A stretch of 64,000 nucleotides of DNA from Candidatus Abzuiibacterium crystallinum (GCA_002787155.1 PCVY01000028.1:9478-73477), one strand, 5' to 3'; counted from the stretch's first letter, positions 8,148 to 64,000 are shown. Numbers and translations are program-made. The notes: generated by a model not told the origin, from the sequence alone.

Positions 8148-8153
8148 TTGTGC

Positions 8154-8849: not shown

Positions 8850-8858
8850 TGTAGCAGC

Positions 8859-11365: not shown

Positions 11366-11369
11366 ATAT

Positions 11370-14407: not shown

Positions 14408-14414
14408 GATTCAC

Positions 14415-29395: not shown

Positions 29396-29420
29396 AACCT
29401 ATAACTCCGTGCTAGATAAT

Positions 29421-31109: not shown

Positions 31110-31145
31110 TGGCGAGTCTCACCTTTGCATCGGAATCAAGATGCT

Positions 31146-33310: not shown

Positions 33311-33314
33311 GCTT

Positions 33315-34355: not shown

Positions 34356-34409
34356 AAATCTCTCCTCTATAAGGTTAACACATTATTTTGTACCAAAAGT
34401 CCTTTGTTT

Positions 34410-36607: not shown

Positions 36608-36612
36608 GGTAT

Positions 36613-37524: not shown

Positions 37525-37543
37525 TTTAATGATCTTTCATAAA

Positions 37544-38491: not shown

Positions 38492-38511
38492 GACAACAAA
38501 CCTTTCCTATA

Positions 38512-39807: not shown

Positions 39808-39810
39808 ATC

Positions 39811-40635: not shown

Positions 40636-40643
40636 AAAAATAT

Positions 40644-41954: not shown

Positions 41955-41961
41955 GAGCCCG

Positions 41962-43071: not shown

Positions 43072-43081
43072 GTCATGACCT

Positions 43082-43846: not shown

Positions 43847-43863
43847 GAAATTAAGAGTTGATA

Positions 43864-44616: not shown

Positions 44617-44699
44617 TTGGTTTTCACTTGCAACTTTTTAAAACCAATCAAAACGTTCTTCGCGCGTCATGTATGTTGATTGAGCGGCCACCGGCTGCA

Positions 44700-46344: not shown

Positions 46345-46346
46345 GA

Positions 46347-47363: not shown

Positions 47364-48697
47364 GCCGGCTTCCTTACTGTTCGCCCGCGCCCAAGCGCCA
47401 AGTATTGAATAGACTTGTCTAACCGCTTTTCATCTAATAGACGCCAACAATCTAATAAAACCTTTTTGGTTTCGCTTTTAAATTTAAAACCCATTAGCTG
47501 AAGGAAGGTTTGATCGGGTGTTGCAAGAATAATAATATCCGCTTTTCTAACGCCTTGCTCTAAACTATTTGCATACAAAACCCGGTGTCCCAACTTTTGT
47601 TTTGCCGCTTCTAATGCCAGCGGATCATAAACTTCTACTAAAGCATTTAATTCTAACAATTCGTTGACGATATCGATTGATTGCGAACTCTCAATCACGT
47701 TTGTTTTGGGTTTGTAACTCATCCCTAAAATAAGCACTTTTGTTTGCTTCTTGAGATAAGGCTCAATCCGTTTAATGACTCGAAAAGCTTGGCGGCGGTT
47801 AATTTGATCAGTTGCTTCAGCAATGTTGGCCTGCAAACCCAATTCTTTTGCAAGAGCGCCGAGGGCTAAATTATCTCGTGGAAAGCAAGGACCGCCATAA
47901 CCCAAGGCGCCCCTAAAATAGGCCGGATTGATTCTCCGGTCATTTGCCAAGGCTTTGGTTACCACCTCAACATCAGCATTTGGTAAAACTTCACTCATTT
48001 CTGCCAGCATGTTTGCAAAAGAGATTTTCGTTGTCACATAGGTATTAATGGCAATCTTGGCTAACTCTGCGTTCACCCAATTCATTCGAAGCAAGTTGGG
48101 CTTATTATCGCAAAAAACCTCATAGAAATCCGCTAATTCTTTTCCGGCCCGCTGATCAGACTCACCGATTAAAACAAAGTCTGGATTGAGTAAATCATGA
48201 ATGACATTACCCAATGCAATAAATGCCGGATTATAGCAAAGACCGAAATCTTTCCCGCATTTTTTGGAGGACGCCTGTTCCAATTCAACCAAAATATTTT
48301 GCCTCATATCGCCAGGCAAAACAGTGCTGACCACAACAACCAGATGGTAGCTGTTTTTCTTTACCAAACTCTTCCCAAGAGCCCGGACTGCTTGCAATAC
48401 CATTTCAACCGAAAAACGGCCATTGGCATTGCTGGGGGTAGGCACCGTAATAAAAGTGACGCTGGTCTCACGAACCACAGTTTGATAATTATCCGCTACT
48501 TTAATACGGGATCGATTGGCGCTCATTAATGACTGTAATCCAGGTTCCAACACAGGAGATTCACCTTTGCGTATGTTAGCCGAAACTTGATCATTCACAT
48601 CGTACCCAACGGTTGAAAATCCTTTAGCTGCTGCGCAAGCAAGCAACGGAGAGCCTAGTTTACCCAATCCGACCACCGATATTTTTGGCAAAATCAC
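47360..48697 (-). CDS. UDP-glucose/GDP-mannose dehydrogenase family enzyme (UDP-sugar 6-dehydrogenase, Ugd/WbpA/WecC-like)
   Basis: N-terminal ISVVGLGKLGSPLLA NAD-binding motif. Catalytic-Cys context GGPCFPRD. The protein is 445 aa. Confidence 0.8.
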   Translation of the reverse strand: MILPKISVVGLGKLGSPLLACAAAKGFSTVGYDVNDQVSANIRKGESPVLEPGLQSLMSANRSRIKVADNYQTVVRETSVTFITVPTPSNANGRFSVEMVLQAVRALGKSLVKKNSYHLVVVVSTVLPGDMRQNILVELEQASSKKCGKDFGLCYNPAFIALGNVIHDLLNPDFVLIGESDQRAGKELADFYEVFCDNKPNLLRMNWVNAELAKIAINTYVTTKISFANMLAEMSEVLPNADVEVVTKALANDRRINPAYFRGALGYGGPCFPRDNLALGALAKELGLQANIAEATDQINRRQAFRVIKRIEPYLKKQTKVLILGMSYKPKTNVIESSQSIDIVNELLELNALVEVYDPLALEAAKQKLGHRVLYANSLEQGVRKADIIILATPDQTFLQLMGFKFKSETKKVLLDCWRLLDEKRLDKSIQYLALGRGRTVRKPA

Positions 48698-48701
48698 AAT
48701 A

Positions 48702-49643
48702 TCACCTTTCTCGTTGAACCATAAGTATTTGCTGCAAAACCTTTCGAATCAATTGCCTCAAACAAAGTCTAAACCAAAGCAAGGGTTTAATGAATGGGCT
48801 AAGCCATGATCCATTTTCCCGCAAAATAATTTCCACATCAAGATTTCTTAAAAGCCGTAACAACGATAAGCGTTTCCGTTGCAATTGTTCATTTCTTAAA
48901 ATCCATTGGGCGTCCGATAGACTAAAACAATGATCCATATCGCCTGCGAGTCTTAAATTTTCTTCCACTTCAGGCCCTACCCAAATATCTTGACTTAATC
49001 TGTTTTTAGCTAGAATATGATTCGGATAACCATGATTTTGATGAACAATAAAAAAGCTTTTAGTGGCATCAATCACTTCTGCATGAGAAAGACGTGCTTG
49101 ATAGATCAGCCAATTATCGTATTTGGTGCGGCCAATGGCAAATCTGGGCATTTGATTAAAAAGGCCTTTCTTAAATAGAAAGTAGTCAATACCGGTTTCA
49201 TCGCACAACTCACCTGTTTCTTGAACCCGTTTTTTCAAATCCGACTGCCAATCGTGGTTTTTAAAATTAATCCGTTCGGTAACGTCTAAATTCCAACGCT
49301 GCCCAATGATGAGGAAGTGACTGAAAGAAACTCGAGCCAGTAAAGTCTCAAACCCTTCCGTGAGAATGATATCGGTGTTGATATAGCATACGATGTCGTA
49401 ACGTGCCAGCTTTTGCGCTTGATTAAAAATAAAATTCACGAGCGGTGTGCCATATTGATTGCGCTCAAGCGCCGAAACATGCCGAAAACCAAACTCCTTC
49501 GCTGCCTGTTCTGTCCCCGTTTCATCACCAAAAAGGATAATTTCTGCATTCGGATTTAACTGTTTCCAGCTTTCGATGGCATTTTTCTGGATATGGTCAT
49601 AAATGCCGCTAAAAGGTTTTGGTAACGTAAAAATGGAAATCAT
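48702..49643 (-). CDS. Hypothetical protein, a possible GT-A-like glycosyltransferase
   Basis: The 313 aa product has a YINTDIIL D-x-D-like segment. No firm family assignment can be made. Confidence 0.3.
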   Translation of the reverse strand: MISIFTLPKPFSGIYDHIQKNAIESWKQLNPNAEIILFGDETGTEQAAKEFGFRHVSALERNQYGTPLVNFIFNQAQKLARYDIVCYINTDIILTEGFETLLARVSFSHFLIIGQRWNLDVTERINFKNHDWQSDLKKRVQETGELCDETGIDYFLFKKGLFNQMPRFAIGRTKYDNWLIYQARLSHAEVIDATKSFFIVHQNHGYPNHILAKNRLSQDIWVGPEVEENLRLAGDMDHCFSLSDAQWILRNEQLQRKRLSLLRLLRNLDVEIILRENGSWLSPFIKPLLWFRLCLRQLIRKVLQQILMVQRER

Positions 49644-50688: not shown

Positions 50689-53190
50689 TTACTCTTGATT
50701 TTCCATTTGAAAATATCGATCCCAATTAATGTGATAGGCTACCAACTTATTGGGAGGTAAATCAGTCTGCTGTTCCGTTAAAGGTGTAAAAAACTTGAGA
50801 TCAACAGCTTTTAAATAATACAAACGATACAGAACCGACCTCAATAAATCGGGAAACCCGACAACAGCCGTATAGGTATCCGGATACTCGAGAAGTAAAA
50901 CCGAAGTTGAATAAAGACCCATCCCCTTCATTCGCTTCTCAATCAAATGATCCTCTTCAACGTACATTAAACTGAATGGTCTTAAAGTCAAATTTTCTTT
51001 TTCATTATACAACAAGGCATCTTTCAGAACTAAATTAACAGCTAGGTTCTCTTCAAAGAATAATTCGTCTCCCGTTGATCGAAGAAGTTTTCTTTCGGGT
51101 CCATATTGCCAGTTATCCGTGACTAACTGAAGATGTTGCTTTAAAAAACGCCTGTCACCTATTTTTTTGTTTTGTCTGATCAATTCAGCTGCTCGATCAA
51201 AATCCCAATTAACCAGGTAAGATAGCCCGATGTTGCGAAAGATAAGGTCATCATAAATGAAAACGCAGCCGGGCGGCACCGGTTGCTCCGGGTGGGTTAA
51301 TCGTATTAATTCCTCGTACTGCGTTTTGGTAAGTTCTGGCGGCCCTTCGGCTGGCAGTTTTGATTTTGGAACACTAAGAACATTTAAAATTAACTGATTG
51401 ATCCTAGCAGCCCTCAACCCTAAATTCTCCAAGAAAACCTCGGCTTTATTTCCGGTGGTGGAGAGCATGCGCCAAATACTTAACGCAAGGAACTCATTCG
51501 CGGTCATGAAGGCCTGTGCCATCCAATAATTTTGATGACTGTATTGGCTGCCGCCATCTAACATGGTGCTTCTTTCGGCAATCGCATTGATAAAGTAACC
51601 GGGGTCAAACCACGAGTAAACAATGGTGTCTTTCGGCGTTTCTTTTTTAATATCGGTCAAAACTTGATTCCAAGTATCATTCATCACCTGTTCGTTGTTA
51701 AATACAACCACAGAAATATACTGAGCATACGCCACTGGAGGCATAACACAGCAAGCCAACAAAGCAAAAACAGCGGCAGGTAATTTCCAATCCCGTTTTG
51801 CCCCCCATTGATGTTTGATCATTTCAAGCGCATGATGTACAAAAAACGAAAAGAAAAGCGCAAAGGGCAGCACCAATAACACACTAAAACGAACTGCCTG
51901 CAAACTCAGGATTGCCGACGGTAGAAAAAAAGCCGTAAAAAAAAGAAATTCTGAAAAACGGAACTGGCTGCGTTGACACCAGGTGGTATAGGCCATGATG
52001 ACAAACCCCAAAACCACCCATACAAAACTCAGATCATTTCCTACCAGGTAAATCACTTTTCTCACAGATGCCGGATCCAATTCCGCGATGAACATAAGGG
52101 TGTTGGGCCAAATATCAAGCGATGAGCCGCTTGCTCTCACCCGCTCAAAAAGGAAGAATTTTTCTTGAAGCGACAATAAAAATGGATGACTGGGCAACAA
52201 GATAAAACTAAAGCACACCGCCGAAATGAAATAGCCGCTCAGCCACTGTAAATACTTTTGATTTCTTTGCTGATTGAAAAAAATTTCATAAAGCCCGGCA
52301 ATCAAGACGCTGACTGATATCACTAAAAATAAATAATGCCAAGCTTCCCAAAAAAATGCATAAATAACTGTCACAAATCCCGCCAGAAGAGAGCTGGCCA
52401 TAATAAACCGACGCCGGCGCAGCGGGTAAAACAATAACAATAAGACAATGAGAGGAAAAATAAGTTGATAAGGATCGTTATCATAACTGCCCAACGCGCT
52501 CCGCTGAAGATAAATAGGCGATAACGATAAGAATGCAGCGCCTGCAAAGGCAGCTAAAAAATTAAGCTCTAAGACAGCAGCGAAAAGAAAAAAAAGTAAA
52601 ATGGACAATACTGCAAGAAATATCGGATACCAAGCAAGGAGATCTACCAAAGCTGCTTTTTTAAAAAATAGTTTAAAGAAATTGGCCCAGGCAGCTCCCA
52701 GATATGGATGCAGGGTAATATTTTCCCACGAACCATCTGGGGCTTTCCTAAGGGGATTGAAAAACTTATTCTGACGAAATTTCTCACCGATGTGGCCCGT
52801 CCGCATAATATTCTCTGTTAATTGGTAATATAAATAAGCATCTGCACCTAATAAATAGAAATGGTTCTGTCGAACGCCCCCATTCTCTCTCAGTAGTTTT
52901 TTCTCGGTCTCAGCGGTTAAATTTAGAAATTGCAGCTTATCTTCGGCCATTGCCAACTTCATCCGCTCATCTGTCAATCGATTAAGCTGGGTTGTATTGA
53001 GGTGAGAATTTTCCGACTTTAACAACTGACGAACATGTTTTTCAGCCATTCCATAAGCAATCGATTCGGCTTTTTGGTGAATCTCTTGTGCGGTTAAACG
53101 GTTCGCATTTATCCGGTAACGAATGCGGTGATAGATGCCGAAAGCAATGACCAGCATAATCAAAATCAAATAAAACATGGGACGCTTCAT
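50689..53190 (-). CDS. STT3/AglB/PglB-family oligosaccharyltransferase-like membrane protein (OTase-1) with a degenerate WWDYG motif
   Basis: The 833 aa product has N-terminal TM helices. An EL1-like acidic motif LLGADAYLYYQLTENI is present (compare SNDGYAFAEGARDMI of PglB). There are about 12 TM helices and a TIxE-like FIAE segment. The C-terminal periplasmic domain carries SWFDPGYFINAIAERSTMLDGG, which aligns with PglB [21 protein letters not shown]. The start is trimmed to MKRPMFY to abut the upstream GT4 gene. Confidence 0.65.
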   Translation of the reverse strand: MKRPMFYLILIMLVIAFGIYHRIRYRINANRLTAQEIHQKAESIAYGMAEKHVRQLLKSENSHLNTTQLNRLTDERMKLAMAEDKLQFLNLTAETEKKLLRENGGVRQNHFYLLGADAYLYYQLTENIMRTGHIGEKFRQNKFFNPLRKAPDGSWENITLHPYLGAAWANFFKLFFKKAALVDLLAWYPIFLAVLSILLFFLFAAVLELNFLAAFAGAAFLSLSPIYLQRSALGSYDNDPYQLIFPLIVLLLLFYPLRRRRFIMASSLLAGFVTVIYAFFWEAWHYLFLVISVSVLIAGLYEIFFNQQRNQKYLQWLSGYFISAVCFSFILLPSHPFLLSLQEKFFLFERVRASGSSLDIWPNTLMFIAELDPASVRKVIYLVGNDLSFVWVVLGFVIMAYTTWCQRSQFRFSEFLFFTAFFLPSAILSLQAVRFSVLLVLPFALFFSFFVHHALEMIKHQWGAKRDWKLPAAVFALLACCVMPPVAYAQYISVVVFNNEQVMNDTWNQVLTDIKKETPKDTIVYSWFDPGYFINAIAERSTMLDGGSQYSHQNYWMAQAFMTANEFLALSIWRMLSTTGNKAEVFLENLGLRAARINQLILNVLSVPKSKLPAEGPPELTKTQYEELIRLTHPEQPVPPGCVFIYDDLIFRNIGLSYLVNWDFDRAAELIRQNKKIGDRRFLKQHLQLVTDNWQYGPERKLLRSTGDELFFEENLAVNLVLKDALLYNEKENLTLRPFSLMYVEEDHLIEKRMKGMGLYSTSVLLLEYPDTYTAVVGFPDLLRSVLYRLYYLKAVDLKFFTPLTEQQTDLPPNKLVAYHINWDRYFQMENQE

Positions 53191-54335
53191 TTTAAACAAT
53201 CCTTTTTTGCAACTTGTTCGCAGCATTTCAAAACTTCTTTAGCGGCTAGCTTCCATGTAAACAATTCGGCACGTCTTCGCGCCTGATCAATCATGGCATG
53301 GCGTTCGGCCGGCTCCATTTCAAGCAAAACTTGCAAATGATGCGCTAAATCCTGGTCATTATTTTCTTGGAAGTAACCAACACAATCTCCGCCGACTTCG
53401 GGGATAGAAGCACAGCGAGTCGTTAAAACCGGAACACCCGCTGACATCGCTTCTAAAATCGGAAGTCCAAAACCTTCGTAACGTGAGGGTAAAACAAATA
53501 CATCCGCACGGCGGTACAGCGGGAGTAAGTCCTGCTGAGAAAGAAATGGTACTCGACGGTAACGATTATTTGGAATTTCTTCACATGCACGTTTTAGCAT
53601 GGGCTCACCCAGGCGGGGTTGGCCAACCAGAATCAATTGATGAGAAATCTGAGACAATAACCGTTTGAAAGCACTTACCAAACATGGTAAGTCCTTGTGC
53701 GGATAGGAGTTAGCAACACACAATATATAAGGTTTTTGGCTTTGTAAAACAGACTGCACTGTTGGATGGATTTTTTTTTGGTGCTCTGATTGAAATAACG
53801 GCGAAACACCGCATGAACTAACAGCCACTTTGGTCGGCGGAACGTCTAAAAATTGCACAATTTCACGTTTCGAAAACTCGGAAAGTGTGATAATTATTTC
53901 GCATTGACGGCTCGCGCTAATGACTAGAAAATGAGTGACTAGTCGTGATAGAAAGTTTAAATCTTCCGGAAATCGTTTGTATTGCATGTCAAGGATGGTG
54001 ACAATTTGAGGGCAATGCGCATACAGCGGAGCCGTATAACCCGGCGACCACAAAATATCTACTTTGGCTTGGTAGGCGCGTATCGGTAGTTCCGTTTGCT
54101 CACGAATGATCCTGACATAGCGGTTAGTGGCATGAAATGAAAGCTTTGAAAAGGTGACGTTTGGGTATTTTCCGAATTGGTTTTGCAGCGAGTCATGGTT
54201 GTCCTGATGTGTAAAAAGACAAAACTCAACACTGGGCTGCATGGCAACCATCGCCTGCAGCGTTTCGCGTAAAATAGTTTCTGATCCACCAACTTCATTT
54301 GGAATAAGAAACAGCGCATTCACGCCGATTCGCAT
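53187..54335 (-). CDS. GT4 family (GT-B) glycosyltransferase
   Basis: PSRYEGFGLPILEAMSAGVPVLTT is the GT4 signature. The protein is 382 aa. It is directly upstream of OTase-1 with a 4-bp overlap. Confidence 0.75.
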   Translation of the reverse strand: MRIGVNALFLIPNEVGGSETILRETLQAMVAMQPSVEFCLFTHQDNHDSLQNQFGKYPNVTFSKLSFHATNRYVRIIREQTELPIRAYQAKVDILWSPGYTAPLYAHCPQIVTILDMQYKRFPEDLNFLSRLVTHFLVISASRQCEIIITLSEFSKREIVQFLDVPPTKVAVSSCGVSPLFQSEHQKKIHPTVQSVLQSQKPYILCVANSYPHKDLPCLVSAFKRLLSQISHQLILVGQPRLGEPMLKRACEEIPNNRYRRVPFLSQQDLLPLYRRADVFVLPSRYEGFGLPILEAMSAGVPVLTTRCASIPEVGGDCVGYFQENNDQDLAHHLQVLLEMEPAERHAMIDQARRRAELFTWKLAAKEVLKCCEQVAKKDCLK

Positions 54336-54377: not shown

Positions 54378-54851
54378 CTAGGACAAATAACCTAACAGTG
54401 CTCTGCGTTTTTTGTTTTGCTCATACACGTCTTCGCCTAAAACTTGTTTTGCCAACTCTTCTTTGTTTTGGCCGTTGTAAAAGTCGTAATCCATTACCGC
54501 CAAGACTTTCAACACAATTGGTAACGGCAACTCTAACATCGTCGGATCCGCTGCAAGCTGTTCGTTAATTTTGGTTGCATAATAACTTGCGGGAAGCAAA
54601 ATAGCCGCGTTGTCCCTGATTTTAAATAACTCAATCATGGCTCGGACAACTTCCGCTTGGTCCGTTTCACTCAACCGATCCCAAGATTTTGCAGACTTTG
54701 TCAGTTGGCCTGCCTGTTGCCGTAGGTTCGTAGGCACCTGCAATGCCTGCATAAGCTCAAGCAAATCTACTTGCTCCTCGGCCCATAATACAGGCATTGC
54801 TGCAGTCGCCCAAAAACCAACTGTTAACAGAAAGATCAACCGGCGCTTCAT
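54378..54851 (-). CDS. Hypothetical secreted or periplasmic protein
   Basis: Signal-peptide-like MKRRLIFLLTVGFWATAAMPVLWA. The start is trimmed to an internal Met to avoid overlap. Confidence 0.4.
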   Translation of the reverse strand: MKRRLIFLLTVGFWATAAMPVLWAEEQVDLLELMQALQVPTNLRQQAGQLTKSAKSWDRLSETDQAEVVRAMIELFKIRDNAAILLPASYYATKINEQLAADPTMLELPLPIVLKVLAVMDYDFYNGQNKEELAKQVLGEDVYEQNKKRRALLGYLS

Positions 54852-54870
54852 CGGATCAAGCATTCGGTCA

Positions 54871-55092
54871 TTACTTTCTCTTGCCGGCTGCTTTAAGTCT
54901 TGCAAGCCGCATCTTTTGTTTTGCGGCAGCGGAATGATGTCTTCCGTACATCGGATTTTTCTTGCCTTTTACCGCCCGACTAATTTTTTGTTTAGAACTA
55001 CTCGAATGCTTTCTTCCATAAAAAGGGTTGCCTTTTCCAGAAGCTAGTTTACTCATTAATCTTTTAGTTTTAGCTGAATGTTTTTGTCCCAT
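54871..55092 (-). CDS. Small, highly basic protein with two NUMOD3-like motifs (a putative DNA-binding module)
   Basis: The 73 aa product repeats N-P-[FM]-Y-G-R-[KH]-H-S-x3-K-Q-K-[IM]-[SR]-x-A twice. This resembles the NUMOD3 motif (NP.YGK.HSEETK.KIS.A.KG) found in homing endonucleases. Confidence 0.4.
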   Translation of the reverse strand: MGQKHSAKTKRLMSKLASGKGNPFYGRKHSSSSKQKISRAVKGKKNPMYGRHHSAAAKQKMRLARLKAAGKRK

Positions 55093-55123: not shown

Positions 55124-56290
55124 TTACCTATACTTCTTAAAAATTTCCAATGCTTTTCTAGTTTGCTGATCTTCTCCTTCTACACCTTCAACCAGATACG
55201 GCACTTCCTCATCCGGAACAATCCCGACCTTATCAATGACCCTCCCGTTTGGTGATATATATCTTGCCGTTGTTAATTTCATGGCAGTTTTATCATCTAA
55301 CGGAACAACAGACTGAACAGACGCTTTTCCGTACGTTTTCATCCCCACAACTATTCCGCGTTTGTGGTCTTGTATAGCAGCTGAGAAAATTTCGGAAGCG
55401 CTGGCAGAATGTTCGTTAACCAACACGATTAAATCGCAATCCGTTAGATGTTTACTTCCATCTGAGAAATGCTCTTTCTTTTGAACATCAATGCGGCTTT
55501 CAACCGAAACTATTTTCTTGTCACCCGGTAAAAAACGGCTTGCCAAATCAATGGCGGCTGTCATTAAACCGCCTTGATTGTTTCTCAGATCAATAATCAA
55601 CGCCTTCATACCCTCCTTTGTCAATTTCTTGATTGCTTTATCAATTTGATCGGCTGTGTGTTCTTGGAAATTATCAATTCTAAGATAGCCGAGATGTCGT
55701 CCAGCCATCCGGACATCGTTAATAGCACTAATCTCCACCAATTCGCGGATAACCTTAATATCAATGGGCTCTGGTACCGTCGGCCTCTGAACCCTTACCA
55801 TCACCTCGGTGCCAGCTTCCCCGCGCAACAATTCGGCTACTTCAGCCATCCCTAAACCAATCACATCTTTACTGTCTACCTTGAGAATCATATCCTTTAC
55901 TTCCAATCCTGCTTTCTGAGCAGCGCTGGCAGGCTTAATTTCTTTGATAAAGATTTGGTTATCAACCATCTCTAATACGGCTCCCAAGCCTGAGTACTCT
56001 CCTTTCATATCAATCTGCAGCAGCTTGTAATGTTCCTCATCAATAAAAACGGTATAAGGGTCCATACCCTCCAACATCCCTTTCACTGCATGATAGAGCA
56101 GTTGGCGTGCATCTTTTTTCTCAACATAGCCTTCCAAAACGGCGCCAATGGCACGTGAGAAAAGTTTTAATTCCTCCAGAACATCGTAACTTTCGCTTTG
56201 CACAGCGGCAGCAGACGAATGTCTGCTGTTAATAGCGGACATCAATAAAATTAAAGAACCTATTAAAAAAAATCCAACCTTTTTCTTCAT
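55124..56290 (-). CDS. S41-family C-terminal processing peptidase (Prc/CtpA-like) with a PDZ domain
   Basis: Signal peptide. A PDZ-like segment is present. Catalytic-region motifs GGLMTAAIDLASRFL and HSASASEIFSAAIQDHKRGIVVGMKTYGKASVQS (Ser/Lys dyad context). The protein is 388 aa. Confidence 0.75.
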   Translation of the reverse strand: MKKKVGFFLIGSLILLMSAINSRHSSAAAVQSESYDVLEELKLFSRAIGAVLEGYVEKKDARQLLYHAVKGMLEGMDPYTVFIDEEHYKLLQIDMKGEYSGLGAVLEMVDNQIFIKEIKPASAAQKAGLEVKDMILKVDSKDVIGLGMAEVAELLRGEAGTEVMVRVQRPTVPEPIDIKVIRELVEISAINDVRMAGRHLGYLRIDNFQEHTADQIDKAIKKLTKEGMKALIIDLRNNQGGLMTAAIDLASRFLPGDKKIVSVESRIDVQKKEHFSDGSKHLTDCDLIVLVNEHSASASEIFSAAIQDHKRGIVVGMKTYGKASVQSVVPLDDKTAMKLTTARYISPNGRVIDKVGIVPDEEVPYLVEGVEGEDQQTRKALEIFKKYR

Positions 56291-56303: not shown

Positions 56304-57308
56304 TCAGTTTGCGCTTAAAAATTTCTCGTGCCAATACAAAATATCTCCGGTACGGGTTGTGACGCAATTAATTAATAGTGCTTCTGAACGATTTCTGAGT
56401 CGAGCTAAGCTTTGAACCGTGTAAGCACTAGACTGCAATGTAAGAAGACCCGACTGAACATAATCATGCAAACTTTGAGCTTCACTATCATCTAGGGGAA
56501 AGGCGTTTTGAAGCGTTTCGGCGACAGAACTTAAACTAATAAAATAATGGTCATCAGGCGTGCGTTCGACGCCATCCTCGCCGGCACGAAAACGTAATAT
56601 TTTCTTAACCAAACTTTCCGACATCCCAATTGAAACTAAGATAATTGGTGAGGCGGTATTTAAATTAAGCAGACCTGAGCCATACAAGGTCAGATAGGGT
56701 GATAAACGCTCGTAAATAGCGGGCGTCATCCCGCGAATGAAGTTCATTTCTTCAAGGATATCCAAAGGTTCATTTTTAGGCTGATAAGGCGGTTTCAGTC
56801 TCATATAATATTTTTTCTCCGCCCCCGCTTCATACGCGTGATCATCCTCGTCCATCCAGTCAAGTAAGGCGTAAGCAATGTGAGCAGCCTCTTCTTTTGA
56901 CAAACCACCTGCCAACTGAAATAAATTGCTTAAGATGCGTGCGGACGTGATTAATCTTAAACTGATTTTACTTTCCTCATCGATCATGCCGCTATAAACT
57001 GTATTCCCGATTTGATAGCCGACAGTAAAATAGCCATCCCCAACTGGAATTTCGTGAAACGCACTTTCATTAACACTCCAACCATCATTTAAGACATCGG
57101 GTAACTGCGATTGAACATCTTTCATTGCCAACACTTGAATAGCCTTTTGAACACCTGCTTCTGCTATATAACGCAATTTTGACTTGGTTTCGAAGGTTTG
57201 TGCCATTTTTAGCTTCCCCTGGACTATACGGCCAACCACGGACGTAAAAAGAGCTAACAAGAGTAAAACCCAAATGGCTAGAATCAACAAACTCCCTCTT
57301 TTATCCAT
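56304..57308 (-). CDS. gspK: Type II secretion system minor pseudopilin GspK-like protein
   Basis: N-terminal hydrophobic helix (LLILAIWVLLLLALF). The conserved GspK motif LLNLNTASPIIL (PxNxNTAS) is present. The protein is 334 aa. Confidence 0.6.
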   Translation of the reverse strand: MDKRGSLLILAIWVLLLLALFTSVVGRIVQGKLKMAQTFETKSKLRYIAEAGVQKAIQVLAMKDVQSQLPDVLNDGWSVNESAFHEIPVGDGYFTVGYQIGNTVYSGMIDEESKISLRLITSARILSNLFQLAGGLSKEEAAHIAYALLDWMDEDDHAYEAGAEKKYYMRLKPPYQPKNEPLDILEEMNFIRGMTPAIYERLSPYLTLYGSGLLNLNTASPIILVSIGMSESLVKKILRFRAGEDGVERTPDDHYFISLSSVAETLQNAFPLDDSEAQSLHDYVQSGLLTLQSSAYTVQSLARLRNRSEALLINCVTTRTGDILYWHEKFLSAN

Positions 57309-57315: not shown

Positions 57316-57660
57316 TTATTTGTCCAATAACTTGAGTTGACGACTCACGTCTGTCAGCTTGTCTGACATATCATTGATCTTAACCTCCAACGCATTCATC
57401 TTTTCCGTCAGCTGTTCAATGCTGGCGTGCACTTTGTCAAAATGCCGTTTCATATATATATCGACACCTTCGGGCTCATATTTGCCTCCTATTCTGATAA
57501 CCTCACGGTCCTCAGCCATGTTATAGACAATCCCGTATTTTTTAATGCCTTCCGAAGTTTCATCCGATTTTCTCTCCTCCGCAAAAACAGACATGCACAC
57601 GACGCCTGACAACACGCTCATCATGGCTAAGCCCACTATGAGGTTAGGTAGTTTTTTCAT
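57316..57660 (-). CDS. Small secreted coiled-coil protein, hypothetical
   Basis: Signal peptide MKKLPNLIVGLAMMSVLSGVVCMSVFA. The C-terminal region is a heptad-rich helix. The protein is 114 aa. It overlaps the OTase-2 start by 17 bp. Confidence 0.4.
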   Translation of the reverse strand: MKKLPNLIVGLAMMSVLSGVVCMSVFAEERKSDETSEGIKKYGIVYNMAEDREVIRIGGKYEPEGVDIYMKRHFDKVHASIEQLTEKMNALEVKINDMSDKLTDVSRQLKLLDK

Positions 57661-60421
57661 CTAATTCTCCTTGTTCAATTTCAGTAATATGGTCAATTTG
57701 TTCCCAATTAATTTTAAATATTTTAACGGTTGTTTTTTGATCACTTTCTTGATAAACGGGCTTAAATAAAGAAAGCGTGATGCCATCCAAATAATACAAT
57801 TGATACAGCACTGAACGGATCAATGCCGGATCCGCGACAACTGCGCGCAACTGGCCCTGACGTTTAAAAAGCAAAACTGACAATGATACTTGGCTTTGAG
57901 GAAAAACATGCTCTACCAGTTTTTGATCAGTGACTTCAAAAACACTATAGGGCTGAATTCGTCCTACCCCGCTTGGCGGCTGTATCCAGATGCTTTGTGT
58001 TTGCATGTCCAGCAAAACACCGTTCTCGAATAATATCTTGTTCTCTTTTTGTTCACGAATCCCTGCTTCCGGCAAATATTTCCAAGCACCTTCAATCGTA
58101 TCGAACACCTCACTTAAATAGCCTTGAAATTTTTTCTCCTTCACTTCTTCATATCTGGTTAAATTTGTTGTGAGCCACCGATCTGCTGCCTGACCACCCA
58201 AGAAAGTTGGGCTCAAACCCACTTCCAGTGGCACTGAAGATTGCGATGCCTGAGGTGTCACGGGCGCTTGACTGTTTATTTGGTGATTAGGAATAAGAAG
58301 AGGATTTGTCCAGAAGGGTGTCTGTAAAACATTTTGAACCCAGTTACCCAAAGCAAGAATGATAGGTTTTTGAGTCAGTTGTTTTTTTTGCTGAAACTCT
58401 TTTGCCTTCCTAAAATTCCACTTTGCAAGGAGGGTCAAGGCTAAATTTTTTTCCATCAAATCATTATAAAGAAATAGATAAGAAGGCGGCGGTTGCTCAA
58501 TTTGTATCAAATTAACAAATGCTTTTTGTTCATCCGCTGACATTTTTCCGCTTAATTGCGCCATCAGGCTTGCTGGATCTAACGTCATGGAATCAGTAAT
58601 TAATTCGATGGCATCTGACAACTCCCAATGGCGCTCAAGCAGAAAATCAAGAGGCGCATTGCCTTTTGTGTTAACCATATTAAATAATCCAACTGCTGTT
58701 TTCTCATCAGAAGAAAGAAAAGCTCTGGCCATCCAATAGGTTTGGTGATTTTGCTGGGTGCCGCCGTCAATAACGGTGCGGCGTTCGGCGACTGCATTAA
58801 TAAAATAGCCGGGAGGCCACCAGCTATCAATAATGGCATTCGGGGGACTCTTCTCTTTTAAGTTCAGTAGACTATTATACCAAACATCATTCATAATCCT
58901 ACTCACCCCTTGCGCCCCGATATGTCCCAGAACCAACGGTACCGGAAGAAACAGACAGATCATGAGGAGCCTGGACACATATTCAAAAATCCTGATCCGA
59001 GGTGAATGTGAAAGAAAAATATTTCTAACGTTTAAGAGAGACTGCTCGATCGCATAGAACCCAAGGGCTGTCATGAAACCAAATGGGACTACCAACAAAA
59101 TAGCAAAACGCTCTGTTCGTAACGCCAATAAAATGGTAGGGATAGAAAATATAAAAATCACAAGCCATGCGAAACCCAACTCGGCCTTTTTCTCTTTTAA
59201 AAGAATGGCAATCAAGTAGCAAATGCCGTAAAGAGCAACCATTGCCATCACGGGGCTGCTGCATAAATACACCAGCTTTTTTATCGTCAAAGAATTGGTT
59301 TCGGCCACTGTTAAAAACGCATTTGGCCAAACCGAGACATCTGTGGATGAAAACATGGGGAGAAAGGTAAAAGACTCTTGAAAGACTTCCCACAAACCTC
59401 GCGGGGTCAAAAACAACACTGCCGCCGCCAATGTTGTGATGCCGTAAATAAGTCCAAACAAAAACATATGGTGCTTCATTCTAACGGCCAATTGGATAAA
59501 TCCAATTGCCAAACAGATGACGAATGCAAGCATAAACATATAAATCCATCCTGCCCAAAACAGCGTGTAGACCCCCGTGAGAAAACCAGCCGCAATCGGA
59601 TATCGAAATTGCTTTCTGTTTCCCTGTCGGCAGGCGAGGCACATGAGTCCGAAAATTAGGAGCTGGAATAACGGTTGGTAAGGATCGGTGTCATACCACC
59701 CAAGCGCACTCCTTTGCAAGTAAGCGGGAGCCAGCATCAAAGTAACGAGCCCTAGAAAAAGGGCGGATCCGCTTAAATTAAGCATCCGCCCAACCACAAA
59801 AAAAAGAAGACAACTTGCGCACACGAGAACAAGCGGAAAATATGAAAGCCCCTCCATCATATCAATTTTAGGATTCAAAGCATGAATGATCTTAAACCAG
59901 GAATAGCCTAAATATGGATGAAGCGTCTTGAGTGCCCACGCTCCGCTGGGGGCTTCACGAAGAGAGTTGAAAAAGCGCCCCGATTGATACGCGGATGATA
60001 ACTGACCCTCCTTTACAATCCGTTGAGTAAGGCTATAATAGTAATAAGAATCAGCGCCCAATAAGTAAATTCTTGAGTGTCCTTCATTACCGCCCCCTTT
60101 TGCTATTTGACTTGCCAATTTCTCAACACTTTCTTGAAATTGATCGTGGCTATTTTCAATAATTCTATCTGCTTGTTCATGCACCAATTGGTTCTTTAAT
60201 TTTTGATCAAGTCCTGGCAGTGAAGTTTCGTCTATGTTTTTTTTGATTTGACTGACAATTTTATTGTAAACCGCATCCCGCGCTAACTTGTGCGCAACAA
60301 AAGGTGAAACTTTGCGCAAGGTCTCTGTTCTAAAAAAACAGGCAATCAATCCAGATAAGATAATCAGCCCAATCCAGAAAAGACGCGACAGAAGACGATT
60401 GTCTTGCTGAAAAGTATGCAT
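57644..60421 (-). CDS. STT3/AglB/PglB-family oligosaccharyltransferase-like membrane protein (OTase-2). The WWDYG motif is replaced by SWWPPGY.
   Basis: The 925 aa product is a paralog of OTase-1. It has YLLGADSYYYYSLTQRI (EL1 acidic motif), a TIxE-like TVAE, and IIDSWWPPGYFINAVAERRTVIDGG aligning with PglB WWDYGY…TLVDGG. A long C-terminal periplasmic extension follows. Confidence 0.65.
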   Translation of the reverse strand: MHTFQQDNRLLSRLFWIGLIILSGLIACFFRTETLRKVSPFVAHKLARDAVYNKIVSQIKKNIDETSLPGLDQKLKNQLVHEQADRIIENSHDQFQESVEKLASQIAKGGGNEGHSRIYLLGADSYYYYSLTQRIVKEGQLSSAYQSGRFFNSLREAPSGAWALKTLHPYLGYSWFKIIHALNPKIDMMEGLSYFPLVLVCASCLLFFVVGRMLNLSGSALFLGLVTLMLAPAYLQRSALGWYDTDPYQPLFQLLIFGLMCLACRQGNRKQFRYPIAAGFLTGVYTLFWAGWIYMFMLAFVICLAIGFIQLAVRMKHHMFLFGLIYGITTLAAAVLFLTPRGLWEVFQESFTFLPMFSSTDVSVWPNAFLTVAETNSLTIKKLVYLCSSPVMAMVALYGICYLIAILLKEKKAELGFAWLVIFIFSIPTILLALRTERFAILLVVPFGFMTALGFYAIEQSLLNVRNIFLSHSPRIRIFEYVSRLLMICLFLPVPLVLGHIGAQGVSRIMNDVWYNSLLNLKEKSPPNAIIDSWWPPGYFINAVAERRTVIDGGTQQNHQTYWMARAFLSSDEKTAVGLFNMVNTKGNAPLDFLLERHWELSDAIELITDSMTLDPASLMAQLSGKMSADEQKAFVNLIQIEQPPPSYLFLYNDLMEKNLALTLLAKWNFRKAKEFQQKKQLTQKPIILALGNWVQNVLQTPFWTNPLLIPNHQINSQAPVTPQASQSSVPLEVGLSPTFLGGQAADRWLTTNLTRYEEVKEKKFQGYLSEVFDTIEGAWKYLPEAGIREQKENKILFENGVLLDMQTQSIWIQPPSGVGRIQPYSVFEVTDQKLVEHVFPQSQVSLSVLLFKRQGQLRAVVADPALIRSVLYQLYYLDGITLSLFKPVYQESDQKTTVKIFKINWEQIDHITEIEQGELDEKTT

Positions 60422-60458
60422 TGATATCCGCCAAAGTTAATATAAAATAATTGAGCCA

Positions 60459-60719
60459 TCGGGGAGTTAATTTTATCAATCCCCGCTGGCTCATCCCAGC
60501 GCATTGCTTTTTAATGCGCGTGGGATTACCAATGAAACCCCATACCAGCCCCGCTTGATCGTGACTGGTATGGGGTGAGAGGTCGGGGAAACTCCTCGAC
60601 CTCTCAAATAATTGAGGTGTTATCCCAGCGGGGATTGTTTCCGCCAAAGGCCAGATCTCCGCCGGAGGGACGGATCAGTCCTTTGGCTGAGGTCCTCTGG
60701 CGGAAGAATTAACTCCCCG
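60459..60719. ncRNA. GC-rich, highly structured element with nested inverted repeats, a candidate structured ncRNA / cis-regulatory leader or a MITE-like repeat
   Basis: Outer 13-bp inverted repeat CGGGGAGTTAATT (60459-60471) / AATTAACTCCCCG (60707-60719). An inner 13-bp pair CAATCCCCGCTGG (60477-60489) / CCAGCGGGGATTG (60625-60637). Several internal hairpins (60495-60526, 60538-60575, 60577-60604, 60639-60705). Local GC is clearly higher than the AT-rich flanks. It lies in the divergent intergenic region between OTase-2 and a GT2 gene. Confidence 0.4.
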
Positions 60720-60781: not shown

Positions 60782-61486
60782 ATGAACACCCAAAAAATAC
60801 TTATCATTGTTCCCGCACTTAATGAAGAAAAACTCATCGGAGACCTTGTCCGTGAAATTAAGGCCGCCTATCCGTATGATGTTTTGGTCATTAACGATGG
60901 CTCGCTTGATCAAACTGCAGTTTATGCTGTTCAAGCGGGTGCCAAAGTTGTAACACATCCTTATAATCTTGGGATTGGCGGTGCCGTTCAAACAGGTTTT
61001 AAGTTTGCTGAGAAAGAGGGATATAAAATTGTTGTACAAGTTGACGGCGACGCTCAACATGACCCGCGATACATCCAGCCTCTTATAGAACCTGTCTTAA
61101 AAGGGCAATTTGATTTGTGTATTGGATCTCGTTTTATTAAACCTTCCGACACGTTTAAATCTACATTCATTCGGCGAATTGGTATCCGTTTTTTTGCTGT
61201 TCTATTGGGCTGGCTAACCGGTGTCCATGTAACGGACCCAACATCCGGCTTTCGAGCCACCGGCCCTGCTCTGATTAAACCATTTTCAACGAACTACCCC
61301 GTCGATTTTCCGGAGCCTGAAACCATTAAAATCGCAAAACGCTTAGGCGCTCATGTTGGCGAAGTCCCTGTGCAGATGCGTCAGCGTCTAAGCGGTCATT
61401 CGTCGATTCGCTATTTTCGAACGGTTTACTACATGATCAAAGTCACTATAGCCATACTCATTGATGCTTTAAGACGTAACAAATAA
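60782..61486 (+). CDS. GT2 family glycosyltransferase, DPM1-like polyprenyl-phosphate sugar synthase
   Basis: N-terminus ILIIVPALNEEKLIGDLV…VLVINDGSLDQT…VVQVDGDAQHDP (DxD). The protein is 234 aa. A small DUF2304-type membrane protein gene follows. Confidence 0.7.
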   Translation: MNTQKILIIVPALNEEKLIGDLVREIKAAYPYDVLVINDGSLDQTAVYAVQAGAKVVTHPYNLGIGGAVQTGFKFAEKEGYKIVVQVDGDAQHDPRYIQPLIEPVLKGQFDLCIGSRFIKPSDTFKSTFIRRIGIRFFAVLLGWLTGVHVTDPTSGFRATGPALIKPFSTNYPVDFPEPETIKIAKRLGAHVGEVPVQMRQRLSGHSSIRYFRTVYYMIKVTIAILIDALRRNK

Positions 61487-61495: not shown

Positions 61496-61846
61496 ATGAA
61501 TGTAAATTTCTTTGCAATTTTAAGCGCTTTTCTTATTTTATGTTTGGTTATTGAACTGATTCGACAACAAAAAATGACCTTTAAATATTCTTTATCGTGG
61601 TTGAGCGCCAGCCTTCTTGTTATCATTCTTGCTTTTAATGAAAAACTCTTAGCTAAAATCTCTACTTTTTTTGGCTTTGAACTGCTGAGTAATTTTATTT
61701 TCTTTTTGCTTCTTTTATTTTTTGTCTTCTTAAGTCTTCGGTTAACGATATTTATTAACGAACAAAATAACCGAAGTGAAACTTTGGCTCAAACGGTTGG
61801 TATTCTTGAGCATAAAATTAACGAGCTCGAGAAAAAAACACACTAA
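61496..61846 (+). CDS. Small membrane protein (DUF2304-like), a GT2-associated partner
   Basis: The 116 aa product has two or three TM helices and a C-terminal coiled-coil tail. It forms a conserved gene pair immediately downstream of a DPM1-like GT2 gene. Confidence 0.5.
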   Translation: MNVNFFAILSAFLILCLVIELIRQQKMTFKYSLSWLSASLLVIILAFNEKLLAKISTFFGFELLSNFIFFLLLLFFVFLSLRLTIFINEQNNRSETLAQTVGILEHKINELEKKTH

Positions 61847-61854: not shown

Positions 61855-62523
61855 TTAGAAAAACTCAAATCCCGCTCCTCCCTGAGTCGTATCAGATTCG
61901 CTCTTCTCTGGCGTTTTCATAATGTCTTCAATCCGTCGCGCTAAATCGTCGCGGCCGATCTGACGGAGCAGTGTTATTGACTTGAGCGCAGCTCCTCGCT
62001 TTTCTGCCGCGACATAGGCAAGCCCTAATCCATACTGCGCTTCCACAACGTCTGGGTCTCGCTTGACTGCCTTTTCAAAATACTGAACTGCATCGTACCC
62101 GTTTTGTTTCTGTAATTCTAACCAACCTAATCCCGTGTAGCCTTTTGCAAAGTTTGGATCGGCTTCAATTGATTTTTCAAAAAATTCTTTTGCTAAAATC
62201 GGATCCTTAGCCACCCCGGCATAATAGGTCCCAATATTAAAATATGGGTCGCCGTAATGCGGATTCAGTTCGGTCGCCGTCATAAATGCGTTCATTGCAC
62301 CGATGATACCTTCTTCGGTTTTTAGAAGCGCCACACCCAAGGCATTGTGAAATTGCGGGATATTGGGATTCGCTCGTATGGCTTTACGAAATGATTCAAT
62401 GGCTAATGGGATCTCGCCTTGATTTATGAATTCAATACCAGCTTCGAAATAATGACGCTCATCTTGCGCTCGCAGCGGTCCAGCCGTTAAAAAGAAACTT
62501 AAAAAGAAAATCAAAATGATCAC
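61855..62523 (-). CDS. Tetratricopeptide-repeat (TPR) protein, secreted
   Basis: Signal-peptide-like N-terminus. Repeated TPR signatures are present (…AIESFRKAIRANPN…, …AKEFFEKSIEADPNFAKGYTGLGWL…, …AVQYFEKAVKRDPD…). The protein is 222 aa. Confidence 0.7.
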   Translation of the reverse strand: MIILIFFLSFFLTAGPLRAQDERHYFEAGIEFINQGEIPLAIESFRKAIRANPNIPQFHNALGVALLKTEEGIIGAMNAFMTATELNPHYGDPYFNIGTYYAGVAKDPILAKEFFEKSIEADPNFAKGYTGLGWLELQKQNGYDAVQYFEKAVKRDPDVVEAQYGLGLAYVAAEKRGAALKSITLLRQIGRDDLARRIEDIMKTPEKSESDTTQGGAGFEFF

Positions 62524-63179
62524 GTCTCTTCCTCCGAGGGAATCGGCACCGTTTTATTCTGGCCTCCTGTTGTCATAGGTACTTCGGCGGGCATTACTTC
62601 AACCCCTATCTCATCTTCAGTTTCTCCGTCGTTTGTAATAAAAATGCGTGACATGGATAGACTGGCGTTAATCACATCTGAGTTTTTCCCTTTAGGTTCC
62701 AGCAAATACTGAGTGATGCGAAATAAAAAATCTGAATCTTCAAGTGCCTGCATAAATTCCAGCATGTTCCGCAACTTCCCATTACACTCGAGCGTTGTTT
62801 TGTACTCTTGCATAATTGGATTGCCTTCCACATCGCCAGGCTGCACATTTGTGATATTGATGGACATTGCTGCAGCAATTGATTCAATTTCTCTTAAAAG
62901 ATCCGCAATAATCTCCTCTTGAGCTTTCTCGCCACTATCGAGATAGTGCTGATACTGCCTGTATTCACGCAAAATACTGTCTTTGTAGGACAGAACACGA
63001 ATGCTACGCTTTATTGCTTGAGACTTCGCATCAATTTCAGCATCCAGCACTTTTTGTTCTGCCAAAATCGGCCCCAGAACAAGCAGATCCATGAGCAGCA
63101 TGAGCACGCATATAATCGCAGCGATTATTAATATTTTTTCTTTTTTTTGTAACTTGTTATAAAAATCGTTAATATTCAT
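62520..63179 (-). CDS. GspM/PilO-like type II secretion or type IV pilus inner-membrane assembly protein
   Basis: Short cytoplasmic N-terminus, a single TM segment (ILIIAAIICVLMLLMDLLVLGPIL) and a periplasmic coiled-coil domain. A 4-bp overlap with the upstream gspL-like gene. The protein is 219 aa. Confidence 0.45.
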   Translation of the reverse strand: MNINDFYNKLQKKEKILIIAAIICVLMLLMDLLVLGPILAEQKVLDAEIDAKSQAIKRSIRVLSYKDSILREYRQYQHYLDSGEKAQEEIIADLLREIESIAAAMSINITNVQPGDVEGNPIMQEYKTTLECNGKLRNMLEFMQALEDSDFLFRITQYLLEPKGKNSDVINASLSMSRIFITNDGETEDEIGVEVMPAEVPMTTGGQNKTVPIPSEEET

Positions 63180-64000
63180 TAAATTCCCTCAACCAAGGTA
63201 CATTCGATGGAAAAATCTGCTACTTCTTTTTGTCCTTCCCGCCTTGATTTTGTTTCTTTGGTTTGCACATCCGTAAAGAAATTAGATTCTTCTAATTCAG
63301 TGACGAATGCAAAAATACGTGACATGGAATCAGCTGTCCCTCCAATGGTAATGGCGCCCTCCTTGTCGTAACTAAACCTAGACAAGTAAATATCATCACC
63401 AATCATGGAATTTATCTTCTCAAAGACATGGAGACCTCTGCCCCTTTTACGCAAGAGTTCTCGAACAGCCCGACTTTTGGTTGATTTTTCTTCTAATTCC
63501 CTGGCTTGCTCAAATGTTGACTCATTTAATGTTTCCAATTTCTTGCGGTGCTCATTTTTAATATAACTCTTCACTAATAAAAAAACGCTGATTAATAGGA
63601 AGACTGTCATGATCAAAATGCCAAATTCGATAACATCTTTTCCGCTTTTTCGAAAGGACCGCCTTATTTTAATTTCCTTTGGAATTAAATCGATCCTTGT
63701 CAGGCTTAGCATCTCGTAGGAGGAGAAGACATCAAAAAATGAATCATCTGTGGCTTGTGCAATCATTTGAGATACTTCACTTCCCGTTTGAAATCTATCT
63801 TTTGCTTGAATGAATGAAACTTTTGTTTCATGATCTTTAATATAAGGAATGGCGCCTTCTATTCCCTGTTTGATTAATTCGTGGTACTCAGGTATGCTGG
63901 CAACGAACAGCATTTTAATCACTTGCCCCACACCTTGATCTTGATAAGCGACGATAGATTTACTTAATTCCGAGATAAACTCCTTGACTGCCGCTTCGCG
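63179..64000 (-). CDS. GspL-like bitopic secretion-system protein (cytoplasmic domain, TM, periplasmic domain). Partial: the N-terminus lies beyond the window end.
   Basis: The reading frame stays open upstream of the annotated GTG (63931) to the window edge. A central TM segment (ILIMTVFLLISVFLLV) separates cytoplasmic and periplasmic domains of roughly 100 aa each. It is adjacent to the gspM-like gene. Confidence 0.45.
   Translation of the reverse strand, partial: REAAVKEFISELSKSIVAYQDQGVGQVIKMLFVASIPEYHELIKQGIEGAIPYIKDHETKVSFIQAKDRFQTGSEVSQMIAQATDDSFFDVFSSYEMLSLTRIDLIPKEIKIRRSFRKSGKDVIEFGILIMTVFLLISVFLLVKSYIKNEHRKKLETLNESTFEQARELEEKSTKSRAVRELLRKRGRGLHVFEKINSMIGDDIYLSRFSYDKEGAITIGGTADSMSRIFAFVTELEESNFFTDVQTKETKSRREGQKEVADFSIECTLVEGI

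Follow-up and report, generated by a model that had tools for sequence, protein, structure and literature searches.

A 64,000-nucleotide stretch of Candidatus Abzuiibacterium crystallinum (GCA_002787155.1 PCVY01000028.1:9478-73477), referred to below in its full length as the window, contains two open reading frames (ORFs) for membrane glycosyltransferases (GTs) of type C (GT-C) that match the STT3/AglB/PglB family of oligosaccharyltransferases (OSTs). The gene under study, OTase-2 (57644..60421, minus strand), encodes 925 residues from an ATG start; its divergent paralog OTase-1 (50689..53226, minus strand; 845 residues) is 27% identical to it and is flanked by two GT4 genes. The residues around the OTase-2 counterpart of WWDYG, the motif involved in recognition of the +2 residue of the N-x-S/T sequon, are NAIIDSWWPPGYFINAVAERRTVIDGG (W534, W535, P536, P537, G538, Y539), with IDSWWPPGYFINAVAERRTVIDGG as the motif segment; SWWPPGY runs from S533 to Y539 and is encoded by 58807..58827 (minus strand, computed from the ORF start at 60421). 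Pro occupies both the Asp and the Tyr column of WWDYG, and Y539 is the equivalent of C. lari PglB Y468. The corresponding region of OTase-1, TIVYSWFDPGYFINAIAERSTMLDGG (motif segment VYSWFDPGYFINAIAERSTMLDGG), reads SWFDPGY, so that in its WFDPG motif the Asp is retained, Phe replaces the second Trp and Pro replaces the Tyr; the ORF translation agrees here with what the earlier note on this DNA had read.

That these residues occupy the WWDYG column is confirmed by the agreement of four independent alignments. Both proteins match the STT3 profile PF02516 (E 2e-18 for OTase-2, residues 117-491; 5e-17 for OTase-1) and, above the gathering cutoff, the STT3-PglB_core profile PF21436; the PF02516 match of OTase-2 is also above cutoff, and its residues 533-582 fall on positions 7-55 of PF21436, covering the motif region. 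A phmmer search of the PDB aligns OTase-2 SWWPPGYFINAVAER to mammalian STT3A SWWDYGYQITAMANR, and a 54-sequence family profile, searched against the same database, aligns sWWsPGhFItavAeR to A. fulgidus AglB SWWDYGHWIEAVAHR as well as to STT3A. Finally, hhalign, run with the clade against 65 AglB-type sequences that carry WWDYG, gives a probability of 100 and an identical motif register. The loss of the OTase-2 Asp proposed in the earlier note is borne out by these comparisons, which add that the Tyr is replaced too. The note had also considered that an intact WWDYG might lie elsewhere in the protein; WW occurs in OTase-2 at 534-535 and nowhere else, the one further [WFY][WFY]D, WYD242-244, forms part of the second DXD motif, and a search across OTase-2 and OTase-1 found no second intact WWD(Y)G.

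A hidden Markov model search of 1.84 billion cluster representatives returned 5676 matches, 1332 of them at E<1e-30, the best 150 all having E<1e-174; a word-indexed search gave 17 relatives of OTase-2. Column counts are based on an ingroup of 156 cluster representatives, 24-36% identical to OTase-2 (individual representatives carry P numbers and genomic loci L numbers below). Within this set the first and second Trp (W534 and W535) are found in 150 and 153 sequences, respectively, and the Gly (G538) in all 156; the Asp column contains P in 111, S in 24, C in 6, A in 5, T and D in 4 each, and N and G once each, and the Tyr column is Pro in 153/156. The Gly is followed by His (102) or Tyr (53), and then by Phe (152/156). 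The motif of the clade is WWxPG[H/Y]F, where x is mostly Pro and otherwise Ser, Cys, Ala or Thr; the change of Tyr to Pro is its most fixed feature, the Asp position accepting any small residue or Pro. Since these columns are held across 156 representatives at such low identity, chance is excluded as the cause of WWPPG. The Asp loss is thus real but, contrary to how it had been presented, not a peculiarity of OTase-2: it is a signature of the whole Omnitrophota clade.

In a scan of reference genomes (one per GTDB species, with a pattern that permitted only P/D and P/Y at the Asp and Tyr positions), WWPPG is present in 12/12 clade loci, most of them from metagenome-assembled genomes (MAGs) titled Candidatus Omnitrophota or Omnitrophica and the rest from entries titled 'uncultured bacterium' or 'uncultured Planctomycetales'. 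The AglB homologs in loci L018-L085 read WWDYG in 56/56 cases, a figure that, given the residues allowed by the pattern, is not an unbiased census. Members of the long-form subfamily that fall outside the clade (P0014, P0015 and the deltaproteobacterial MAG loci L018 and L019) read WWD[YH]G, from which it follows that the WWxPG state of Omnitrophota is derived. Variants resembling that of OTase-1 are rare: besides P0023, which is 99.9% identical to OTase-1 over 833 aligned positions, the representatives include only P0159 (WFDPG) and P0091 (YWDPG), both of them long branches within the WWxPG clade in a neighbour-joining tree that is too crude to tell a retained Asp from a regained one. Paralog pairs recur in the clade; L004 (7209..12541) carries two tandem WWPPG STT3-like genes, of 923 residues (with an insert like that of OTase-2) and 846 residues. 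A literature search on WWPPG, on STT3 in Omnitrophota and on GT66 across bacterial phyla found nothing on this clade. Together with the genomic setting described below, these data define an uncharacterised STT3-family clade that is spread across Omnitrophota and combines a WWxPG motif with a conserved link to a pilus/T2SS-like (type II secretion system-like) apparatus.

An AlphaFold2 model of OTase-2, calculated from a 16-sequence alignment (mean predicted local distance difference test (pLDDT) score 79.5, predicted template-modelling (TM) score 0.77), has a fold of the PglB type, with a predicted multi-helix membrane domain followed by a C-terminal periplasmic domain. Foldseek comparison of the model with the PDB ranks PglB first (5ogl, E 9e-18; 6gxc and 3rce, ~1e-17; target TM-score 0.68), followed by STT3A/B and AglB, and other GT-C families (AftA, DPY19, ArnT) are weaker than PglB by at least 10 orders of magnitude. 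The family architecture includes a ~90-residue helical extension between transmembrane helix 1 (TM1) and D124, as well as a ~55-residue helical insert after the WWxxG helix. A further ~70-residue insert in OTase-2 (residues 695-766; 58124..58339), Gln/Pro/Ser-rich and with pLDDT <50, is shared with few relatives (P0002, P0010) and explains why the protein has 925 residues when most members have ~840.

The residues on which catalysis depends in characterized homologs are maintained throughout the clade. In the first DXD/ExD motif, located in external loop 1 (EL1), D124 is found in 152/152 non-gap sequences and aligns with GNDPWYY of A. fulgidus AglB (AfAglB); the clade reads [E/G]-A-D-S/P-Y (profile eaDsYYY), and the residue two positions before D124 is Glu in 87/156 sequences and Gly in OTase-2. 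The second DXD motif (EL2), GWYDTDPY, with D244 in 153/156 and D246 in 154/156 sequences, aligns with AfAglB GFNDHH and STT3A GSYDNE. The TIXE/SVSE motif of EL5 is TVAE in OTase-2 (T371-V-A-E374) and TVGE in the consensus, aligned with AfAglB THNGEF, its Glu being invariant (E374, 156/156); equally invariant is the lipid-phosphate Arg (R438, 156/156), which lies within TERF in OTase-2, aeRF in the consensus and QNRF (R426) in AfAglB, in the column of PglB R375. In PglB and AglB, the metal, the carboxamide of the acceptor and the phosphate of the lipid are bound by the residues equivalent to D124, D244/D246, E374 and R438 (PMC8342417; PMC6215017), and Y468 of C. lari PglB makes a hydrogen bond to the donor's C2 N-acetyl group (PMC6215017). 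The equivalent of the latter is Y539 in OTase-2 and His or Tyr across the clade. The idea that the Tyr-to-Pro change abolishes this donor contact was considered and rejected, the contact being made by the residue after the Gly, which is retained as Tyr/His. OTase-1 likewise has the catalytic Asp, the DxD, the Glu and the Arg, in addition to a Tyr/His after the Gly.

On the strength of these residues, OTase-2 is read not as a dead partner but as an enzyme that is probably active and has a changed +2 Ser/Thr pocket. A non-catalytic role, either as scaffold in the pilus/secretion apparatus or as inactive companion to OTase-1, might account for a broken textbook signature motif and for a gene placed tightly beside structural pilus genes; we nevertheless consider it highly improbable, since invariance of the catalytic and lipid-phosphate residues at ~30% overall identity (24-36% to OTase-2) is not expected of a pseudo-enzyme. 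Moreover, most relatives have one STT3-like copy per locus within the ~22 kb of flank examined, with no evident active partner near, and where two copies occur in tandem, as in L004, both read WWPPG. The earlier suggestion that one of the two paralogs is a non-catalytic partner is accordingly unsupported, both of them keeping D124, D244/D246, E374, R438 and the Tyr/His.

How much weight the lost residues carry can be gauged from PglB. In the C. lari enzyme, W463, W464 and D465 form a hydrogen-bond network to the hydroxyl of the +2 Thr (PMC3527161), and WWDYG forms the Ser/Thr pocket together with the DK/MI motifs (PMC8342417); random mutagenesis of C. jejuni PglB (CjPglB) yielded as inactive variants the single changes D459V (three times), Y460N and Y460C, and also D459N (with S492C) (PMC3527161). 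The literature thus upholds the role of WWD as the binder of the +2 hydroxyl on which the earlier note relied, and altered +2 recognition appears a natural and reasonable consequence of replacing the Asp and the Tyr. With Pro fixed at the Tyr column and P, S, C, A or T tolerated at the Asp column, the canonical pocket cannot work in the canonical way in this clade. To call the substitutions incompatible with Ser/Thr recognition, as had been done, is too strong, because the two Trp are still there, as is a candidate DK motif, and a weakened or changed +2 read-out seems as likely as none at all.

The candidate DK motif, [DN]669-F-x-K672-A-x-x-[ILF]676, is one of two DK/MI candidates in OTase-2, the literal DxxKxxx[M/I] at 669-676 and a broken helix at 653-666, in a region that the global hhalign alignment handled poorly; the [DN]xxKxxx[ILF] pattern at 669-676 is also found in the WWDYG outgroup member P0014. 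Its conservation bears on the possibility that the clade consists of canonical N-x-S/T OSTs, in which the +2 hydroxyl is held by the Trp indoles and a DK-type helix, the Pro-Pro turn doing no more than reshaping the loop. This would fit the retention of W534 and W535 and an intact TVxE peptide-pairing motif, and in about a quarter of members (~35/156) a hydrogen-bond partner could come from a Ser, Thr, Cys or Asn in the Asp column. It sits poorly with the inactivity of the CjPglB variants, with a Pro (111/156) that has no side-chain hydrogen bonding, and with major pseudopilins in the operon that hold fewer sequons than expected, and is on balance unlikely.

The DGGK loop, whose Lys is thought to aid donor binding, is modified as well: D552-G553 is invariant, but the Lys and the His that follows are replaced, giving DGGTQ in OTase-2 and DG[AG][TS][QI] in the clade. 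DGGK is the bacterial/euryarchaeal form of this motif, the alternative being DNxTxNx[T/S]. In CjPglB, the His after DGGK is H479, which is important for activity (PMC3527161).

The strongest functional clue, missed in the earlier note, is the placement of the gene beside T2SS/type-IV-pilus-like genes. Related loci were compared by tblastn with the window proteins over flanks of ~22 kb and fall into type A (L001-L008) and type B (L009-L017). In three Pfam-annotated relatives, the order is F-type ATPase subunit, T2SSE (with MshEN), T2SSF, T2SSG-type pseudopilins, a PilM-PilN fusion, a PilO-like protein and a tetratricopeptide repeat (TPR) protein; then DUF2304 and a GT2 enzyme, these two on the opposite strand; then one or two STT3-like genes and a ~110-residue protein; and lastly a further GT2 in some loci, T2SSK, an S41 peptidase and a ~160-residue protein. 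The window carries the same order reversed, from 63931 down to 54378. T2SSE/F/G genes lie upstream in the type-A loci, whereas in type B the STT3-like gene is convergent with a TPR-PilO-PilN-...-GspK series, the TPR gene being its immediate neighbour. Across L001-L017, TPR and GspK homologs adjoin the STT3-like gene in all loci with enough flank, and PilO/PilN in most.

In the window, all of these genes except the GT2/DUF2304 pair lie on the minus strand. A PilN domain protein (63179..63931; PF05137, 3e-15) probably represents the C-terminal portion of a PilM-PilN fusion, given that the open frame reaches the window end (64000) and that relatives carry ~500-residue PilM_2+PilN fusions. It is followed by a PilO/GspM-like assembly protein (62520..63179; weak GspM match, 3e-4), with orthologs in nearly all loci, and by a PilW/Tgl-like TPR protein (61855..62523; below-cutoff NCBIfam matches to PilW, 1.7e-12, and to Tgl, 5.5e-11). 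Beyond OTase-2 lies p114 (57316..57660), whose start overlaps the OTase-2 stop by 17 nucleotides and which is directly downstream of the STT3-like gene in closer relatives; it has a hydrophobic N-terminus (putative signal peptide), a C-terminal coiled-coil-like stretch and a conserved ...DR...PEG.D.Y..R core. Next come a GspK-type minor pseudopilin (56304..57308; PF21687 5e-22, NCBIfam T2SS_GspK 5.5e-26), a CtpB-like S41 PDZ peptidase (55124..56290; PF03572 6e-55) that is part of the conserved type-A order, and p175 (54378..54905), which follows the S41 peptidase in type-A loci, has orthologs in L001-L008 and matches nothing in Pfam or NCBIfam. The hydrophobic N-termini of p114 and p175 suggest export. 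Three further ORFs, at 54610..55047 (plus strand), 59025..59393 and 60330..60647 (both minus strand), overlap or are antisense to annotated genes or the OTase-2 start, show an unusual composition and are unlikely to be genes.

In two type-A loci, an F-type ATPase alpha/beta-subunit gene is located directly upstream of T2SSE (L001 1..939; L003 1..716), matching the pairing of type-4a pilus genes with type-2/3 F-ATPases described in Omnitrophota by Seymour et al. 2023 (PMC10066038); the main text of that paper has no word starting with 'glycosyl' or 'glycan'.

The association with pili extends beyond the clade. The outgroup locus L086, which encodes P0014, contains two T2SSE genes, T2SSF and a 150-residue type-IV pilin, and then three tandem STT3-like genes (7460..15216) that read WWDHG, WWDYG and WWDYG; the Cys-bounded loop at the C-terminus of the pilin carries its one N-S-T sequon. 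Since T2SS/pilin genes are present in a locus that still has WWDYG, this STT3 subfamily seems to have been associated with pili before its motif changed, and pilins become plausible as its ancestral substrates.

Divergent from OTase-2, and on the plus strand, are a GT2 polyprenyl-phosphate glycosyltransferase of the GacI/PpgS/AglJ/DPM1-like kind (60782..61486; PF00535) and a small membrane protein of the DUF2304 family, to which GacJ and Rv3632 belong (61496..61846; PF10066, 7e-19). The GT2 enzyme matches the NCBIfam models PpgS (1e-31) and AglJ (3e-25), below their equivalog cutoffs, and a haloarchaeal Dol-P hexose transferase model; in the PDB it matches P. furiosus Dol-P-Man synthase (5mlz, 2e-15), GtrB and ArnC. 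Its orthologs, 60-66% identical, occupy the same position in L001, L003, L004 and L006-L008, where the pair is conserved. GacJ associates with GacI in a complex and increases the Vmax of the latter over 300-fold, and Rv3632 has a stimulating effect on PpgS (bioRxiv 10.1101/180810). From the membership of DUF2304 in this activator family, taken with the GT2 matches, the pair almost certainly makes a polyprenyl-monophosphate sugar. By analogy with AglJ and Haloferax AglB, our hypothesis is that it may start a monophosphate-linked donor for the STT3-like enzyme; alternatively, its product could be one sugar that a GT-C uses for decoration. The window includes three PMT_2 (ArnT/PMT-like) GT-C paralogs (17760..19340, 19347..20897 and 23938..25398, plus strand), which with the two STT3-like enzymes make five lipid-donor-dependent periplasmic transferases in 64 kb.

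The pair also raises the prospect that OTase-2 is not a protein N-glycosyltransferase, but a recruited STT3 scaffold that takes the GT2+DUF2304 sugar as GacL, Rv3779, ArnT and GtrC do and modifies a polysaccharide, a lipid, peptidoglycan or a pilin hydroxyl. Consistent with this, the GacI/GacJ-like genes are divergently adjacent in the window and six related loci, known pairs of this kind feed a periplasmic GT-C that decorates glycans (bioRxiv 10.1101/180810), and the enzyme has lost the Ser/Thr-pocket Asp and has an altered DGGK loop. It is, however, improbable: the TIXE/SVSE Glu specific to OSTs (E374) is invariant, as is the EL1 Asp together with which it holds the Asn amide, the Foldseek scores of AftA, DPY19 and ArnT are far below that of PglB, the pair is missing from type-B loci, and the three PMT_2 enzymes would suit the role better.

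Weighing these points, we hold with moderate confidence that the proteins are a catalytically competent STT3/AglB/PglB-family OST clade of Omnitrophota, whose acceptor rule would be relaxed or other than N-x-S/T. Several observations tell against this reading. Both Trp and the candidate DK motif are retained, which means that Ser/Thr might still be read, and the change in the DGGK loop counts against it as well. N-x-S/T is not enriched in the pseudopilins of the Omnitrophota loci (19 observed versus 24.1 expected in 31 proteins) or in their GspG-like major subunits (5 versus 8.9), counts that neither support nor exclude pseudopilins as substrates, and alignments of the neighbours p114 and p175 contain no conserved alternative Asn motif; with neither a sequon excess nor an Asn motif, gene order is what carries the idea of pilus substrates. 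Type-B flanks lack the GT2+DUF2304 pair, which in the window could serve the three PMT_2-type enzymes instead. The one Asn of p114 that was a candidate for a new sequon was rejected, its counterpart in L004 being Asp. Judged by sequence, the clade may read another +2 residue, read Ser/Thr weakly via the Trps or read nothing there.

If OTase-2 is such an OST, it would be an inner-membrane protein whose active site faces the periplasm, and would accept a polyprenyl-phosphate-linked glycan, which in the closer relatives is plausibly begun by the adjacent GacI/GacJ-like pair on polyprenyl monophosphate. The glycan would be moved to Asn residues of a few exported proteins tied to the pilus/secretion machine, with a +2 pocket that presumably no longer senses Ser/Thr through Asp. 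The fuller proposal of a phylum-wide, single-subunit N-OST lineage without an Asp-mediated +2 check, acting on pilus/secretion proteins at a new or minimal sequon and possibly using a monophosphate-linked donor, is put forward tentatively and is less probable than competence with a changed acceptor rule.

OTase-1 is a second, divergent paralog with an intact catalytic set; it lies among GT4 genes and a Wzm/Wzt glycan cluster and probably serves another donor or acceptor. Downstream of it is a long glycan-synthesis operon (27440..49643, minus strand) with GT4 glycosyltransferases, UDP-glucose dehydrogenase, epimerases, a PhyH-type dioxygenase and five Methyltransf_24/TylF methyltransferases. 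The same operon encodes an ABC exporter, consisting of Wzm (45520..46344) and a Wzt with a Wzt_C domain (38512..39807), two sulfotransferases (35540..36607 and 37544..38491), NeuB (33315..34355), UDP-GlcNAc 2-epimerase (32159..33310) and an asparagine-synthase homolog (27440..29395), all on the minus strand; this content suggests a methylated or sulfated glycan with nonulosonic acid as its product. Among the glycosyltransferase genes there is also a B12-binding radical-SAM enzyme (21028..23034, plus strand), and a similar one is located in L086 (16604..18046), just downstream of the triple STT3 array.

In a broader sense, a large natural clade that has kept its catalytic residues and has, under strong selection, Pro-Pro where WWDYG has Asp-Tyr amounts to an evolutionary experiment on sequon recognition. 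If the phylum-wide proposal is true, the clade would be the first natural lineage of OSTs to fall outside the N-x-S/T rule. It would also be the first sign that Omnitrophota perform glycosylation of the STT3 type; the pilus/T2SS-like link ties the enzyme to machinery thought to mediate host attachment of these ultra-small bacteria. Should the sequon prove relaxed, the clade would be a source of sequon-relaxed OSTs useful for bacterial glycoprotein engineering.

Among known systems, the best structural match is Campylobacter PglB (GT66), a single-subunit enzyme that, like OTase-2, joins a GT-C membrane domain to a periplasmic domain, and equivalents of its D56, D154/D156, E319, R375 and Y468 are present in OTase-2. 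The two differ in that OTase-2 has WWPPG for WWDYG and DGGT-Q for DGGK-H, in the clade's ~90-residue TM1-EL1 Asp extension and ~55-residue insert after the WWxxG helix (~840-925 residues versus 713), in a sequence identity of ~13%, and in a pilus/T2SS-like operon rather than a pgl locus.

The GacI-GacJ-GacL and PpgS-Rv3632-Rv3779 systems bring together a GT2 synthase, a DUF2304 activator and a periplasmic GT-C, as does the window; unlike in those systems, the window GT-C is of the STT3 family, not GacL/ArnT/PMT_2, and the association is limited to type-A loci. No flippase gene was identified adjacent to the GT2+DUF2304/STT3-like set of the window. TfpO/PilO, PglL and TfpM are O-linking enzymes of the Wzy_C/O-antigen-ligase family. 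Their genes lie within or beside pilus genes, which by analogy suggests a dedicated pilus-linked substrate; the STT3-like enzyme has no sequence or fold relationship to them.

The best sequence-profile match in the PDB is A. fulgidus AglB-L (3waj/7e9s, 2.8e-19), which has His after the Gly, as do most clade members. In Euryarchaeota, the donors of AglB are linked through a monophosphate and their synthesis begins with the GT2 enzyme AglJ, which the window GT2 matches (3e-25). Archaeal AglB glycosylates type-IV pilins and archaellins (PMC5131992). The present enzymes differ from archaeal AglB in their bacterial (Omnitrophota) hosts and gene order, and the AglB homologs recovered by the genome scan read WWDYG. 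Closest in architecture are the long-form WWDYG relatives (P0014, P0015, L018, L019), which share the same extended layout and align end to end at 19-25% identity. P0015 is encoded beside a Glycos_transf_4 (WecA/MraY-type) gene, without pilus genes nearby, and L086 has T2SSE/T2SSF/pilin genes attached, like the Omnitrophota loci. By keeping WWD[YH]G, these long-form relatives mark the state ancestral to the Omnitrophota motif.

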